DNA of 64,000 bases, from assembly GCF_058153355.1 (NCBI RefSeq), contig NZ_CM177019.1. One strand, written 5' to 3'. How positions within the stretch are numbered: the first letter of the stretch is position 1; each line of letters begins with the position of its first letter. Shown in pieces: positions 28,248 through 34,052 of this stretch. The translations under genes were made by a program, and so were the position numbers. The notes beneath the pieces are model-generated. The model was given only the letters and a program-made list of their open reading frames with translations, made no database searches and was not told the DNA's origin.

Positions 28248-28650
28248 GCGGGCCAACCGGTACGCCGCGAAACAGCGCCACGCCCAAAACAGTGCCCACC
28301 AGCAGCCCGGCGACCAGTTGCGGCTAGCTGCCCATTAACGTCACGCCGCGCCCACCTAGCCAGGAGACAATAACGCCTACTGCAATTGCCACCAGCGATT
28401 TCCAGTTCAGAAACGAGTGAATCAGGGGTGAGGGCGGTAGCGTCCCGCTGGCGATGGGGGCCATAACGCCAATAGTCAGAATGATTATCCCGATACTTAG
28501 CCCCTGTTTTTCAATCCACGGGAAAAAGGTGCTTAACGGTGTGACGCGGACAATGATCAACACCAGAATTGAAACGGCGACAGTGGTGTTATGACTGATA
28601 AAGCCCAGCGCAGCTAACCCGAGCAGGATCAGCAAAGTGACATCAAACAT
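28204..28650 (-). pseudogene. yeaL: UPF0756/DUF441 membrane protein gene interrupted by an in-frame amber codon
   Basis: Frame opens at ATG 28648-28650 ([23 protein letters not shown]...) and hits TAG at 28324-28326 after 108 codons; the same frame continues [39 protein letters not shown] to a stop at 28204-28206, which would give the 148-aa length I recall for K-12 YeaL. Confidence 0.55.
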
Positions 28651-28767: not shown

Positions 28768-28816
28768 TTGTACACGCTATCAATAACGTGAAAACAGTTA
28801 TCTCCCGGGGCATACC

Positions 28817-28921
28817 ATGAACGATCAAATGTTCGTTGAGACACTGATTATCACGTCATCGTTTTTTGTTATTGCTGTTGTGCTAGTTTTGTCCGTTCTG
28901 CTTATTGAACGGACAGGCTAG
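28817..28921 (+). CDS. yoaI: small membrane protein (34 aa)
   Basis: ATG 28817 to TAG 28919-28921 encodes [34 protein letters not shown], matching the known small protein YoaI; under the 60-aa track cut-off. Confidence 0.75.
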
Positions 28922-29425
28922 TTACGCAGTGCGGCGGAAATTCACCAGTTCTGGTTGCGCAATGCGCAGATAATCCGCAGTTTTCAAAATAACGGATTTA
29001 TTCAGCATGCCTGCATTAAAGGCGATTTCATCGAATCGCTCGAAGAGCAATGGGTCGGCGACCAGTTTGAGTTTTGGATGGAAGCTGAAAGGGGGGATCG
29101 CGCCAAAGACACAGCCTGTCAGTTCATCGACTTCCGCAGGACTGGCCAACGAAGCGCGTAATCCGCCTATATGACTGGCGAGTTGGCTCAGATCGGCCTG
29201 TTGATCGGCAGCGAGGATCGCCAGAACATGTTGATTCACGCCATTGCCTTTGACTTTACATACCAGCGCTTTTGCACCCTGGCCTAAAGCGGTGCCACGA
29301 ATTTCTGACACCGCTTCACATTTACCTACCGCTTCGTGGGTAACGACGCGGAAGTCAGCACCTTCTTGTGATAATAAAGCGATTAACCGCTGATGCGTCA
29401 CGCTTCCTTTAGCCATTTCAGTCAT
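28922..29425 (-). CDS. yeaK: YbaK/ProX-like aminoacyl-tRNA deacylase
   Basis: 167-aa ORF MTEMAKGSVTHQRLIALLSQEGADFRVVTHEAVGKCEAVSEIRGTALGQGAKALVCKV... Confidence 0.88.
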   Translation of the reverse strand: MTEMAKGSVTHQRLIALLSQEGADFRVVTHEAVGKCEAVSEIRGTALGQGAKALVCKVKGNGVNQHVLAILAADQQADLSQLASHIGGLRASLASPAEVDELTGCVFGAIPPFSFHPKLKLVADPLLFERFDEIAFNAGMLNKSVILKTADYLRIAQPELVNFRRTA

Positions 29426-29463
29426 TTCACGCTCCTGAGATTACAAACAACCACAGAAGATTA

Positions 29464-30954
29464 TCATGAACGGCTGTTTTTGTTCTGCTTATTGACATAT
29501 AAACGCTCATCGGAAGCTTTATACGCATCATGTAACGTATCGTTTTCTTTCATCGCATAAATACCGGAAGAAAAGCCGATCTCTTTTTGCGGCGCGATAT
29601 GTTGCAGACGTTTTTCGATACGTTCAGGCAGTTGTGCTGCAATTTGCGGCGTCGAATCGACAAGAATGATGCAGAATTCATCGCCACCGAGTCGGATGGC
29701 ATAATCACTTTTACGAATCGACTGTTTAATCGCCTGAGCTAATAACGTAATCGCTAAATCTCCTTCCTGATGACCGAGCGTGTCATTTATTTGCTTTAAC
29801 TTGTCCATGTCAATTGCAATAAACATCACCGAAGAACCAGATTGCACCAGTTTTTGCAACCGCTGCTCCAGTTCAGGGGTTAATATTTTGCGATTATACA
29901 GTCCGGTCATCGCATCACTAATATTTTCTCGCGACACGTTTTGGTATAAACGGAAGTGCATCCGGACCATATTCAGCAAAATTAACGCCGTCAAAATCCA
30001 GAACAGAACGCTTTTCCACGAAGACGTGATAAAGTAAAGAATATCAATGGATAACGAGACACGAATACCGCCCGGTAAGTCATGGACGTAACTGACATAC
30101 TGGAACAGATTATCTTCGCTCTGGTTGATGATAATGTCGCGCCCTGAATCTGTATCAGTTAGCGTGACATTGAGAAAACGCCAGAGGAGAGGGCGGTCAT
30201 GAGTGTAAAAGATATTCCGCAGATTGTTTTTGTTAATATCCAGCAGCACAATCCCTTTTAGCTGCCCTGCGACATATACCGGCGTCAGCAAACTCATCAC
30301 GTTCTGTTTAGTACGCTGATCCTGGTAAATGCTCGATAATACGGTACGCCCGGTAAATACCTTTTCAATATCTTTGCGATCGATGCCAATACTTCCTGAC
30401 TGCAGGAAGGACCAGTTATTCATCGCAAAGTACTCAACATTAACCGGCTCATAAAAATAGACATAGCGGTCATTGAGATCGAGATAATAGTGAAATTTCT
30501 CTTCGGCCATTCCAAGACCTGAACCGTAATCATCCTGGTGGCGGTTGCCTTCCACTGCCTGATCAAAAGCGGGTAATAGTGCTGCAGCTTCCACAATTGT
30601 GTCGCAGTCAGTGGATGCGGTTTGTAGTGTGCCGCGTAAGCCCGGGTATTTATGGGCAGTCAGGTTTAAGCCATGGGTATTATTGGCAGACTCAAAAGCC
30701 TCGCAGATGGCGCGCCGCTGTTCTGGCGACACTTCCGACTGCTCAGCAGCGAGAGCGCGCATCACATGCGCGGCAATACTCTGATTCTGATACTTATCAT
30801 AAAGAAAGGAGGAATCTGCTCTCTGCACGATATAGCGCAGATAGGCACTCATTGCTCTGTCGCTGGCGACAAGTTCAAAAATAAGGAAGGAAGATGTCAG
30901 CACAATGACACTTGCGGCGATAAAATGCCGGAGCATTCTATGGTGCAATTTCAT
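29464..30954 (-). CDS. dgcJ: diguanylate cyclase (membrane-anchored, periplasmic sensor + GGDEF)
   Basis: ORF 29464-31134; start at ATG 30952-30954 (MKLHHRMLRHFIAASVIVL...) giving 496 aa; intact GGDEF (RLGGDEFCIIL). Confidence 0.88.
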   Translation of the reverse strand: MKLHHRMLRHFIAASVIVLTSSFLIFELVASDRAMSAYLRYIVQRADSSFLYDKYQNQSIAAHVMRALAAEQSEVSPEQRRAICEAFESANNTHGLNLTAHKYPGLRGTLQTASTDCDTIVEAAALLPAFDQAVEGNRHQDDYGSGLGMAEEKFHYYLDLNDRYVYFYEPVNVEYFAMNNWSFLQSGSIGIDRKDIEKVFTGRTVLSSIYQDQRTKQNVMSLLTPVYVAGQLKGIVLLDINKNNLRNIFYTHDRPLLWRFLNVTLTDTDSGRDIIINQSEDNLFQYVSYVHDLPGGIRVSLSIDILYFITSSWKSVLFWILTALILLNMVRMHFRLYQNVSRENISDAMTGLYNRKILTPELEQRLQKLVQSGSSVMFIAIDMDKLKQINDTLGHQEGDLAITLLAQAIKQSIRKSDYAIRLGGDEFCIILVDSTPQIAAQLPERIEKRLQHIAPQKEIGFSSGIYAMKENDTLHDAYKASDERLYVNKQNKNSRS

Positions 30955-31134
30955 GATAAATGGCACTCCTTCGGTTAGTGAAACGAGAAAACCAGATAAA
31001 GTTCGATTGCGGCCTGGCACAGGGGCGCTAATTATACTCATCTCTGCGCCGCTGGGGAGGGGAAATTTAGGGGTAATAGTAATAAATTGTATGCAAAAGC
31101 CACGCAAAAAGCATGGCTCTGAATATTTTTGCAC

Positions 31135-32610
31135 TTAAATATGATGAATAATCACTTTGTTGCCCCCCTCGCTTTTCGCTTCGCGTAAGGCTTTATCTGC
31201 TTCCGTCATGACAAGCGAGATATTACGCGTGTCACCCGTTGAAAAAACCGTGCCAATACTGATGGTCATTTGTTCAGGAACATCATATCTGTTACTAAAA
31301 CCGGTCAGGAGTTCGACATTTTTACGCATACGTTCCGCAATGATTTTTGCCTGGGCACTATTGAGTTCGGTAAATAGCAAGCCAAACACCTCACCCTCCA
31401 GTCGCGCTAAAATATCATCGGGGCGGATGCTTTGCTGGATAATATCGACAATTGAAACCAGCACTTTATCACCCACACGATGTCCCCATTGGGCATTGAT
31501 GCGCTTGAACTGATTAATATCAACCAGCATGACACAAAAGTCCTTAACAACAGGTCGCGACAATAATGACTCTACGCTGTTGAAAAAGTAGCGCCGATTA
31601 TAAATATTGGTCAGTACATCATGAACTGCCAGTTTGCTGGAGAGTTGCAGTTCCTGAAAAATGTTATAAATCAGAAAAGACACAACAAACAGTTTACTGG
31701 AAACTTCAATCCCGCGACTGATATACCAGATGGTGTAATTATACTCATCCAGAGTCAGTAGAAGTAAGTTGCAGCATAGCGATGCCAGACATAATAATGC
31801 TATTAACGGCCATAGTTCGCTGGCTAATCGTGTACGCATGATAATAAAGAACAGTAAAAATGCCCACAAACAAACCAATATTTTTGTATAGTTGATTCCC
31901 CAGGTCGCAGTATGGTTGTCCGGACAGTAATCGACGACATACAAAGAATAGTCAGCGTTATAACTGCTCAGATTGTGTGCCAGAAGGGGGAAAACTAAAA
32001 AAGGAATCAGCGCCAGCAACAGAATGCCAGTTTTTTTCTTATTGTTGTCAAGGATGTTGTCTTTCCCATAACAAAAGAGCGCCAGCGAGGTTAAACAAAT
32101 GAAACTGAGTTGGCGGAAAATATAGAAAATAGAAACATCATTCGACTTTGTCTGGATCAGTGTACTGCCGTTGATTGGTTTATGGATAATTACAATGGTT
32201 TCAACTAAATAGATAAGGCCACTTAAAAATGCAAGGCTTAAAATGAGTGTTGGTAAAATTTGTTTGTTAGTGAAATACTTCATTAACATGAAAAGAAAAA
32301 TGACGGCGTTAAGGAAAAACAAAGCCACAACAACCATCAGGTAATTCATCTGTGGAATGAGTTTTACATTCGTGTTTTCGTTATATAAGGTGGTGATGCA
32401 AAATAAAATTAACGTCAGCAATAAGCTGAAAATAAAAAAGCCTTGAGCTTTTAATTTTTGTGTACCCATAGAAACCATAAAAAGGAGAGCAATGTGAGTG
32501 CTGGATTTTATTGATGGCAGAGATATATGGTTTTGACCAGGATCAATTTTCGTTGACGATAAAAAATAATTAAAGAATAACCCCAGGGAAATACGTGTTG
32601 ACCGAATCAT
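31135..32610 (-). CDS. dgcI: GGDEF-domain protein with degenerate active-site motif (EGEVF)
   Basis: 491-aa ORF, multi-TM N-terminus plus GGDEF domain in which the GG(D/E)EF motif reads EGEVF (ARLEGEVFGLLF); paralog of the adjacent dgcJ. Confidence 0.88.
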   Translation of the reverse strand: MIRSTRISLGLFFNYFLSSTKIDPGQNHISLPSIKSSTHIALLFMVSMGTQKLKAQGFFIFSLLLTLILFCITTLYNENTNVKLIPQMNYLMVVVALFFLNAVIFLFMLMKYFTNKQILPTLILSLAFLSGLIYLVETIVIIHKPINGSTLIQTKSNDVSIFYIFRQLSFICLTSLALFCYGKDNILDNNKKKTGILLLALIPFLVFPLLAHNLSSYNADYSLYVVDYCPDNHTATWGINYTKILVCLWAFLLFFIIMRTRLASELWPLIALLCLASLCCNLLLLTLDEYNYTIWYISRGIEVSSKLFVVSFLIYNIFQELQLSSKLAVHDVLTNIYNRRYFFNSVESLLSRPVVKDFCVMLVDINQFKRINAQWGHRVGDKVLVSIVDIIQQSIRPDDILARLEGEVFGLLFTELNSAQAKIIAERMRKNVELLTGFSNRYDVPEQMTISIGTVFSTGDTRNISLVMTEADKALREAKSEGGNKVIIHHI

Positions 32611-32756
32611 TTTTCCGAATGATTGTTTTCTGAAACTAAATTGTGTAAAGGTTATGCTGTCATATTTAAAGCGATTGTAAGCTAATGTATGTAATAAATG
32701 AGATAATTTACAGTGAGCTAAAAATCAGCCAGGCGATAATGACCCGGCTGACAGTT

Positions 32757-34052
<1,296 letters not shown>

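Follow-up and report, generated by a model that had tools for sequence, protein, structure and literature searches.

PelD and PopA are receptors with degenerate GGDEF domains that bind c-di-GMP via the I-site. Among the GGDEF proteins of Escherichia coli, CdgI (YeaI) has been grouped with DgcT and DgcX as one family (PMC10459773; also PMC5635695), and two papers describe it as catalytically non-functional (PMC5635695, PMC10459773). The purified CdgI GGDEF domain binds c-di-GMP (PMC5635695, Fig. S4), and published work reports both that the ligand is bound through the I-site and that CdgI makes heteromeric contacts. In a survey that detected 25 of 29 GGDEF/EAL proteins, CdgI was undetectable in standard culture, while the product of the neighboring gene, DgcJ (YeaJ), was not listed as undetectable (PMC5635695). 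The GAPES1 domain of YeaJ binds AI-2 through Y210 and D239, and the homologue from EHEC binds it too (PMC9637222). In addition, DgcJ acts on NfrB (PMC8669469).

We analyzed a 64,000-nucleotide stretch of contig NZ_CM177019.1 (here, the window) that contains this gene pair within the conserved Escherichia locus yeaG-yeaH-cdgI-dgcJ-yeaK. Both genes lie on the minus strand and are separated by 180 bp (positions 30955 to 31134), the same distance as in K-12. The cdgI-dgcJ locus was found in 5,424 of 5,426 complete E. coli genomes, with a match over its full length in 5,388 of them, and the order yeaH-[MASE4-GGDEF]-dgcJ-yeaK is common to E. albertii, other Escherichia species and clades, and Citrobacter-like contigs. 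Among these 5,426 genomes, the best agreement with the window is only 98.9 to 99.2%, and S. flexneri 2457T, in which cdgI is lacking, is not its source. A sequence-only reading of the region had recognized the arrangement as one known from K-12, which the identity of the locus, the RefSeq names, and the K-12 comparison bear out. That reading misnamed the degenerate gene dgcI, as it is called cdgI in every RefSeq genome listed and in the 2016 nomenclature; DgcI is YliF and CdgI is YeaI (Sarenko et al. 2017, PMC5635695), and yliF is located elsewhere in the genome. The pair is already known and well studied, and the observation that drew attention to it is correct, if ordinary. An Rfam scan of positions 28800 to 33000 returned no known RNA element, its sole match being a chance snoRNA hit (E = 0.5).

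The intact member of the pair, dgcJ (29464 to 30954, minus strand), encodes a 496-aa protein with a GAPES1 domain and a canonical GGDEF domain, as indicated by its open reading frame, Pfam, and NCBIfam. A mechanically called frame (29464 to 31134) begins with a GTG, a start that we rejected in favor of the ATG at 30954, which gives the K-12 length. With this start the spacer, counted from the cdgI stop at 31135, is therefore exactly 180 bp, as had been claimed. DgcJ equals K-12 DgcJ (b1786) in length, differs from it by one substitution (K45R), and scores 747 bits against the NCBIfam equivalog NF040885 (cutoff, 500; profile positions 1 to 492 of 493). The periplasmic GAPES1 domain spans aa 31 to 304 (30043 to 30864; PF17155, 7e-151), and the GGDEF domain spans aa 346 to 494 (137.9 bits to PF00990; cutoff, 23.8; positions 3 to 160 of 161). 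Within the latter, the I-site RKSD (aa 414 to 417; 29704 to 29715), identified by motif and alignment, is followed by YAIRL and the A-site GGDEF (aa 423 to 427; 29674 to 29688). This A-site motif is the same in all orthologues examined, as are the AI-2-binding residues Y210 and D239. K-12 DgcJ and the YeaJ proteins of Salmonella and EHEC share the GAPES1-plus-GGDEF architecture, the GGDEF and RKSD motifs, Y210, and D239, and nothing notable appears to differ at the sequence level. By its A-site, which has the GG[D/E]EF form of competent diguanylate cyclases, DgcJ is predicted to be active. We envision a cyclase whose periplasmic GAPES1 domain would sense AI-2 and whose c-di-GMP would locally activate the glycosyltransferase NfrB; its activity, AI-2 sensing, and link to NfrB come from the literature, and our analysis contributes the sequence prerequisites.

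The neighboring cdgI gene, as annotated (31135 to 32610, minus strand), encodes 491 aa comprising a MASE4 domain and a degenerate GGDEF domain, in keeping with its open reading frame, Pfam, and RefSeq name. The integral-membrane MASE4 sensor domain occupies aa 88 to 319 (31654 to 32349; PF17158, 165.6 bits, 1.6e-48), and the GGDEF domain, at aa 328 to 485 (31156 to 31629), aligns with the complete PF00990 profile (152.7 bits, 9.1e-45; positions 1 to 161 of 161; cutoff, 23.8). Its I-site RPDD (aa 396 to 399; 31414 to 31425) lies five residues, ILARL, before the A-site EGEVF (aa 405 to 409; 31384 to 31398). Compared with K-12 CdgI (b1785), 6 of 491 residues differ, five of them in codons 1 to 44 and the sixth at residue 57, whereas MASE4, GGDEF, EGEVF, and RPDD are identical. 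The sequence-only reading had described two adjacent, co-oriented GGDEF genes with unlike A-sites, and this description held: Pfam GGDEF domains are present in both proteins, the A-site is canonical in DgcJ and reads EGEVF in its neighbor, and the RxxD motif is intact in each. An offset in the reading of the motif was also checked, and EGEVF aligns exactly onto the GGEEF of solved active cyclases. Where these cyclases and DgcT have GGEEF, DID, and GRN, CdgI has EGEVF, DIN, and GGN. Together with the classification in the literature, these substitutions suggest that CdgI has lost catalysis.

Describing the two genes as tandem paralogs, as had been done, is misleading. Their N-terminal domains, MASE4 and GAPES1, are unrelated, and their GGDEF domains share just 28% identity across 153 aa. 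By contrast, the whole of CdgI can be aligned with MG1655 DgcT (YcdT), at 37% identity over 445 aa (E = 2e-100); this end-to-end similarity, together with the N-terminal MASE4 domain, places CdgI in the MASE4-GGDEF family. CdgI shares this architecture with the active cyclases DgcT and DgcX, and with DgcT it also shares the I-site context RPDD-x5, but DgcT carries GGEEF, DIDHFK..ND, and GRN where CdgI carries EGEVF, DINQFK..NA, and GGN. Had a single GGDEF gene been duplicated in tandem, with one of the copies later decaying, this would account for the adjacency and common orientation of the genes and for the GGDEF domain at the end of both, yet in view of these alignments we consider such an origin scarcely credible. 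The distribution of the two genes also speaks against it: when one genome of each bacterial species was scanned, no cdgI orthologues turned up outside Escherichia and three species of Citrobacter, whereas GAPES1-GGDEF YeaJ homologues are reported across Enterobacterales (PMC9637222). This narrow range of cdgI against the wide range of YeaJ fits an insertion next to dgcJ, and we propose that cdgI may have been inserted there before Escherichia and some Citrobacter split. Citrobacter sp. R56, Awk 4, and NCU1 entered our comparison via the species-representative scan and not via synteny.

The orthologues in the three Citrobacter species retain GGEEF, DID, and GRN. Among Escherichia orthologues we observed six A-site variants (EGEVF, EGDVF, EGEEF, DGEVF, EGNVF, and EGKRF), and while the A-site varies, R396, D399, G406, and F409 are fixed. 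R396 and D399 are invariant in a 21-sequence alignment, and RxxD is nearly constant in Escherichia orthologues, the exception being R396H in one O157:H7 strain and in Escherichia sp. MOD1-EC7003. Within E. coli, a 60-nucleotide segment covering the I-site and A-site is present in 5,411 of 5,426 genomes, is identical to that of the window in 3,546, and encodes EGEVF in all four sampled variants. In the Escherichia lineage, the A-site needed for catalysis appears to have gone (GGEEF to E/D-G-x-x-F, DID to DIN, and GRN to GGN), but RxxD was kept.

These comparisons bear on whether CdgI might, in spite of EGEVF, still have some weak diguanylate cyclase activity. The RefSeq product name is "sensor domain-containing diguanylate cyclase," some substrate-contact residues are left (the first D of DIN, the N of FKRIN, and the D of VGD), and, as cited in PMC9637222, deletion of yeaI is reported to raise early biofilm formation and motility like deletion of true cyclases (Sanchez-Torres et al. 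2011). We nevertheless judge residual cyclase activity to be very unlikely. Gly is missing from the first position of the A-site and Glu from the fourth, the arginine of GRN is replaced by Gly, and DID has become DIN. Moreover, positions 1, 3, and 4 of the A-site differ without constraint from one Escherichia orthologue to another, a freedom that a working active site would not permit. The MG1655 annotation, "putative c-di-GMP binding protein," likewise agrees with the two papers that consider the protein catalytically non-functional.

The spacer between the genes had been taken to suggest separate promoters, and its conservation makes this likely. Directly after the cdgI stop lies a hairpin of 11 pairs with a short U-run (31096 to 31120, minus strand), a probable terminator in which, across Escherichia and Citrobacter-like loci, 6 of the 11 pairs have changed on both sides with pairing kept. 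Further on, about 70 nucleotides before the dgcJ ATG, a perfect TATAAT (31031 to 31036) is a candidate dgcJ -10 element on the basis of its conservation, being invariant, as GTATAAT, in 8 of 8 aligned spacers. A Shine-Dalgarno sequence, AGGAG (30966 to 30970), is also invariant in the aligned spacers. On the other side of cdgI, a terminator-like hairpin and T-run (32724 to 32752, minus strand), whose arms are conserved with changes, immediately follows the yeaH stop and divides yeaGH from cdgI. Additional support for separate promoters comes from the protein survey mentioned above, in which CdgI, and not DgcJ, was listed as undetectable. A promoter and terminator scan of positions 29300 to 32900 was uninformative alone: it gave 8 promoter-like sites, the number expected (8.0), and neither the spacer TATAAT nor the candidate FNR promoter described below was among them. 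Both of these elements came from phylogenetic footprinting. Taken at the level of sequence, cdgI and dgcJ are likely to be separate transcription units.

Several observations indicate that translation of cdgI probably begins 47 codons later than annotated, at Met48, which would give a CDS of 444 aa (31135 to 32469, minus strand); an alternative is the ATG at codon 45 (32478). The codon-48 ATG does not vary across 11 aligned loci, orthologues are annotated at 445 to 448 aa, and the alignment with DgcT starts at Met48. Stops interrupt the frame upstream of Met48 in E. albertii as well as in three Escherichia clade genomes. Codons 1 to 44 have accumulated 5 nonsynonymous and 0 synonymous changes, compared to 1 and 23, respectively, in the rest of the gene, and because the amino acid substitutions are concentrated in this way, we think that the first 44 to 47 annotated codons are non-coding. 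No Shine-Dalgarno sequence is recognizable before Met45 or Met48 in Escherichia. Since the upstream frame is open in E. coli sensu stricto, a 491-aa form could be made there from an upstream promoter; a sigma70 peak has been placed a little before the annotated cdgI ATG, at approximately 80 bp after genome-version conversion (PMC3688515).

The same annotated codons contain a conserved FNR box, TTGATCCTGGTCAA (32533 to 32546, minus strand; codons 22 to 26). Of the 10 positions that TTGAT-N4-ATCAA specifies, 9 match; the box is perfect in the orthologous Citrobacter loci and is conserved in 17 loci. Although it is the only match in the window, the count itself is unremarkable (one against 0.35 expected in 64 kb, with at least one in 21% of shuffles), and for this reason the case for the box rests on conservation and published ChIP. 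A published FNR ChIP peak labeled "within yeaI" carries the identical 14-mer (Myers 2013, Tables S5, S6, and S9, PMC3688515). A conserved -10-like hexamer, TAAAAT (TAGAAT in other loci; 32505 to 32510), lies 22 nucleotides downstream of the box, a spacing found in 16 of 17 loci. Given this spacing and a start 7 nucleotides after the hexamer, the box would be centered at -41.5, with transcription predicted to start near 32498, which corresponds to about 1870497 in MG1655. In its box and its occupancy by FNR in vivo, the site resembles class II FNR-activated promoters, as it would in its centering if the predicted start is correct, but unlike them it was placed among sites without an FNR-dependent expression change in the medium of that one published data set (Table S9, PMC3688515). 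We suggest that cdgI may be silent in standard aerobic growth and is most likely switched on by an FNR-type promoter of class II located within codons 1 to 47 of the annotation, as conservation of the elements implies. The later start behind a conserved FNR promoter, which we regard as probable on sequence grounds, is the only fresh point in this analysis.

Another possibility is that cdgI serves no function today, being what is left of a gene that was acquired horizontally and is now silent and decaying. The gene is AT-rich (GC content of 0.39, compared to 0.50 for the window, and 0.365 over aa 48 to 320), its 5' part has been listed as a "promoter island" (PMC3661553), and its protein escaped detection in standard culture. 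Alleles exist that are truncated, IS-interrupted, or fused as cdgI'-'dgcJ, and cdgI is deleted in S. flexneri 2457T. However, the degenerate CdgI domain is under purifying selection. Its dN/dS is 0.084 to 0.094, and the whole gene, degenerate domain included, gives 0.08 to 0.10 across Escherichia species; the corresponding values for dgcJ are 0.015 to 0.03. With a dN/dS of approximately 0.09, the degenerate copy is evidently selected. A remnant would also be hard to square with the full-length match of the locus in nearly all complete genomes, a nearly invariant I-site, an FNR box and -10 element kept as far as Citrobacter, and a published log2 increase of 5.1 in the cdgI transcript on AppY overproduction. 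We therefore regard decay without function as very improbable.

Because its A-site is lost and its RxxD I-site is kept, CdgI is most likely a receptor or decoy. It would bind c-di-GMP and might sequester other cyclases by pairing with their GGDEF domains as inactive heterodimers, which would perhaps make it an inhibitor. PelD and PopA share with CdgI a degenerate A-site and RxxD; their partner domains differ, so the resemblance is a functional one only. That the degenerate copy was kept for regulatory binding, as proposed earlier, is probable, given that CdgI binds c-di-GMP (PMC5635695) and given the low dN/dS. Overall, we are confident, on the evidence assembled here, in a picture of two inner-membrane GGDEF proteins that differ in origin and are transcribed independently, in which DgcJ would be the active cyclase and CdgI a receptor or decoy expressed from an FNR-type promoter and translated from Met48. 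A more specific scenario is tentative and, as a whole, rather doubtful: codons 1 to 47 would be non-coding and hold the class II FNR promoter, and a 444-aa CdgI, induced anaerobically or by AppY, would act in the gut as a c-di-GMP-sensing brake on cyclases.

As first stated, the observation adds nothing to what is known of a textbook E. coli locus; its by-products are of modest practical value. A shorter cdgI model (444 to 447 aa, with the promoter within the annotation) affects expression constructs, fusions, and "intragenic" ChIP peaks. It also provides a testable expression condition for CdgI, whose trigger has been called "still unknown," namely, anaerobiosis and FNR, alongside published AppY binding. 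The presence of GGEEF in Citrobacter and E-G-x-x-F in Escherichia at one chromosomal position constitutes a natural experiment in the conversion of a cyclase into a receptor. If the more specific scenario is true, the published FNR peak "within yeaI" would really be the cdgI promoter, and CdgI may brake its neighbor DgcJ, and through it the NfrB-dependent production of glycan as well as sensitivity to phage N4.

The interval from 29464 to 32610 holds two minus-strand genes, cdgI (yeaI) upstream and dgcJ (yeaJ) downstream. As annotated, cdgI is an ORF of 491 aa (31135-32610, minus strand), in which a domain search placed a MASE4 membrane domain at aa 88 to 319 and a GGDEF domain at aa 328 to 485. 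A mechanical ORF call runs dgcJ across 29464-31134 from a GTG start; guided by K-12 and the sequence itself, we took the ATG at 30954, which is preceded by AGGAG, as the start codon. The resulting 496-aa protein carries a periplasmic GAPES1 domain (aa 31 to 304) and a GGDEF domain (aa 346 to 494), and scores 747 bits against the NCBIfam DgcJ equivalog model (cutoff, 500). From the cdgI stop to this ATG is exactly 180 bp, the spacer given in the sequence-only reading. That reading also had the motifs right: the c-di-GMP-binding I-site (RxxD) and the catalytic A-site read RPDD-ILARL-EGEVF in CdgI (aa 396 to 409) and RKSD-YAIRL-GGDEF in DgcJ (aa 414 to 427). Since EGEVF falls on the GGEEF of solved active cyclases when aligned, the frame is not offset, and the observation of adjacent, co-oriented GGDEF genes with EGEVF in one and GGDEF in the other is confirmed. 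The biochemical side of its interpretation held as well. The name "dgcI" was wrong: in the standard nomenclature it belongs to YliF, whereas YeaI is named CdgI (Sarenko et al. 2017, PMC5635695), and RefSeq names the two genes here cdgI and dgcJ.

The yeaG-yeaH-cdgI-dgcJ-yeaK locus was matched in 5424 of 5426 complete Escherichia coli genomes at 95 to 99% identity, the closest reaching 99.2% over the locus and 98.9% over the 24 kb compared (20000-44000), so the window comes from a lineage that this set does not include, possibly a Shigella or an unusual E. coli. Relative to K-12, DgcJ differs at 1 residue and CdgI at 6, five of them within the first 44 and the sixth at residue 57. The gap between dgcJ and yeaK (29426-29463) is 38 bp compared to 42 bp in K-12, which would explain a 4-bp length difference in the BLAST match. 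Nearby, codon 109 of yeaL has changed from CAG to TAG (28324-28326, minus strand), cutting a 148-aa DUF441 membrane protein to 108 aa; yeaL is full length in K-12 and in the closest E. coli genome.

The description of the pair as tandem paralogs proved overstated. Both proteins do end in a GGDEF domain, but BLASTP aligned only 153 residues at 28% identity. CdgI aligns with DgcT of MG1655 at 37% identity across 445 residues (E = 2e-100), and together with DgcT and DgcX it makes up the MASE4-GGDEF family (PMC5635695, PMC10459773). When one representative genome of each bacterial species was scanned, cdgI orthologues turned up in Escherichia and in three species of Citrobacter and nowhere else, whereas GAPES1-GGDEF homologues of YeaJ are reported across the Enterobacterales (PMC9637222). 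Moreover, cdgI is AT rich, with a GC content of 0.39 overall and 0.365 in its MASE4 part, against 0.45 for dgcJ, 0.49 for yeaH, and 0.50 for the window. The narrow distribution and AT richness of cdgI argue against tandem paralogy and, with the alignments, make a duplication that gave rise to both genes unlikely; the simplest reading of these sequences is that a MASE4-GGDEF gene was inserted beside dgcJ.

We examined the gene calls at this locus in E. albertii and several Escherichia clades, in two contigs from metagenome or SRA data, and in a further two that are Citrobacter-like. In every one a MASE4-GGDEF gene lies between yeaH and dgcJ, and these constant flanks identify the genes as positional orthologues. 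This flank comparison covered the loci just listed; the species-representative scan added sequences from more Escherichia genomes and from Citrobacter sp. R56, Awk 4, and NCU1. The Citrobacter orthologues (57 to 62% identity) have GGEEF, along with DIDHFK..ND and GRN. Elsewhere the A-site reads EGEVF (E. coli, E. whittamii, Escherichia sp. E1V33, and contig L006), EGEEF (contig L008), DGEVF (strain E69), EGDVF (loci L009 and L014), EGNVF (E. albertii), or EGKRF (contig L007). The other catalytic-type residues are DIN or DVN with GGN in Escherichia proper, and DID with GGN in L006 and L007. Across a 21-sequence alignment, the Arg and last Asp of RxxD and the second Gly and Phe of the A-site are invariant.

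Judged by its substitutions, the degenerate CdgI domain is not decaying: its dN/dS of 0.084 to 0.094, relative to E. albertii and two Escherichia clades, is far below neutrality, with the dgcJ GGDEF domain lower still at 0.015 to 0.020. A 60-nt segment spanning both sites was present in 5411 of the 5426 E. coli genomes and identical to the window in 3546. Four one-mismatch variants were sampled; all retain EGEVF, three are synonymous, and the fourth is R396H. A freely drifting A-site, a fixed I-site, and purifying selection together fit a CdgI that no longer makes c-di-GMP and still binds it. The R396H allele turns RPDD into HPDD in at least two genomes, those of E. coli O157:H7 F8797 and Escherichia sp. 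MOD1-EC7003, and would provide a natural test of the importance of c-di-GMP binding.

The locus also varies in other ways. Contig L006 has the closer cdgI (77% identity) and the farther dgcJ (dN 0.25), whereas L007 has the farther cdgI (64%) and the closer dgcJ (dN 0.10), a mosaic suggesting that some lineage has recombined between cdgI and dgcJ. Two protein-database entries (P0026 and P0035) represent rare alleles with a deletion that has left the 5' portion of cdgI fused, in frame, with dgcJ. E. coli EFF60 carries an IS3 element within cdgI and an internal stop in dgcJ, and shortened cdgI products, 281, 295, or 345 aa long, make up sizeable clusters in the protein database.

Separate promoters, proposed earlier from the spacer, find support in both sequence features and published data. 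A terminator-like hairpin follows the yeaH stop (32724-32752, minus strand), and an 11-pair hairpin directly follows that of cdgI (31096-31120, minus strand); in 6 of the 11 pairs of the latter, both sides have changed with pairing kept among Escherichia and Citrobacter-like loci. Farther into the spacer, an alignment of eight such spacers shows two invariant elements: GTATAAT (TATAAT at 31031-31036, minus strand), around which the sequence diverges, and the AGGAG ahead of the dgcJ ATG. A simple consensus promoter scan performed at chance level, missing both this TATAAT and the putative FNR promoter described below. In a survey that detected 25 of 29 GGDEF/EAL proteins, CdgI was undetectable and DgcJ was not listed as such (PMC5635695).

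The 491-aa model of CdgI is probably 44 to 47 residues too long. Between the window and K-12, codons 1 to 44 show five nonsynonymous and no synonymous substitutions, compared to 1 and 23 in codons 45 to 491 (Fisher p = 5e-5). The upstream frame, open in E. coli proper, contains stop codons in E. albertii and three other Escherichia lineages, and orthologues are called at 445 to 448 aa. All eleven loci compared share the ATG at codon 48 (32469-32467), the Met at which the alignment with DgcT begins; codon 45, by contrast, reads GTG in E. albertii and is missing from Citrobacter. Taken together, these observations imply that codons 1 to 44, or 1 to 47 (32470-32610, minus strand), behave as noncoding sequence, although neither Met in Escherichia is preceded by a clear Shine-Dalgarno sequence.

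Within this part of the annotated ORF lies an FNR box, TTGATCCTGGTCAA (32533-32546, minus strand), matching 9 of the 10 specified positions of TTGAT-N4-ATCAA. In 16 of 17 loci, a -10-like hexamer, TAAAAT or TAGAAT, follows 22 nt downstream. Both elements, which together span 32505-32546 (minus strand), are conserved out to Citrobacter, and the box is a perfect consensus in all Citrobacter loci and in L007. If transcription starts 7 nt past the hexamer, as predicted, the box would be centered at -41.5, a class II geometry. It is the sole match in the 64-kb window; because one chance match is not rare at this size, we rely on its conservation and the published data. Myers et al. (2013, PMC3688515) reported an FNR ChIP peak at yeaI with the identical 14-mer, labeled "Within yeaI," and increased anaerobic sigma70 occupancy, with no FNR-dependent expression change in their medium. 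FNR binding at yeaI is thus already known, and what is new here is the reading of that site as the probable promoter of a shorter cdgI.

Other signals have been mapped inside the gene. An AppY ChIP-seq summit lies at MG1655 position 1871229, or +845 in cdgI, whose RNA rises by log2 5.1 upon AppY overproduction (PMC10057817), and a sigma70 peak "within yeaI" that is induced by anaerobiosis falls near +889 (converted between genome versions; PMC3688515). Both correspond to approximately 31720-31770 (codons ∼282 to 297), near weak promoter-like matches at 31838-31866 (minus strand) and 31718-31745 (plus strand); they may serve an internal sense transcript or an antisense one, or be spurious. The 5' part of cdgI has also been listed as a "promoter island" (PMC3661553).

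Both proteins have been described in the literature. According to Sarenko and colleagues, the A-site of CdgI is degenerate, its I-site is intact, and the purified GGDEF domain binds c-di-GMP; CdgI is undetectable in standard culture, repressed by CsrA, and toxic when overproduced (PMC5635695). In two-hybrid assays this GGDEF domain interacts strongly with several others, and the authors suggested that CdgI may inhibit cyclases by heterodimerization modulated by c-di-GMP (PMC5635695). Among the cyclases, only DgcJ is needed for phage N4 infection; it directly contacts NfrB, a c-di-GMP-dependent glycosyltransferase, and activates it locally (PMC8669469). The GAPES1 domains of Salmonella YeaJ and its EHEC homologue bind autoinducer-2 (AI-2), for which Y210 and D239 are key (PMC9637222); both residues are present in DgcJ of the window and of all orthologues examined. 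In Shigella flexneri 2457T, cdgI is missing and dgcJ truncated (PMC11327459), whereas both genes are intact here, so the window does not belong to that lineage. Both the locus and the idea of a receptor or decoy are already in the literature, to which our analysis brings small, testable additions: a proposed correction to the cdgI gene model and a probable link to an FNR promoter.
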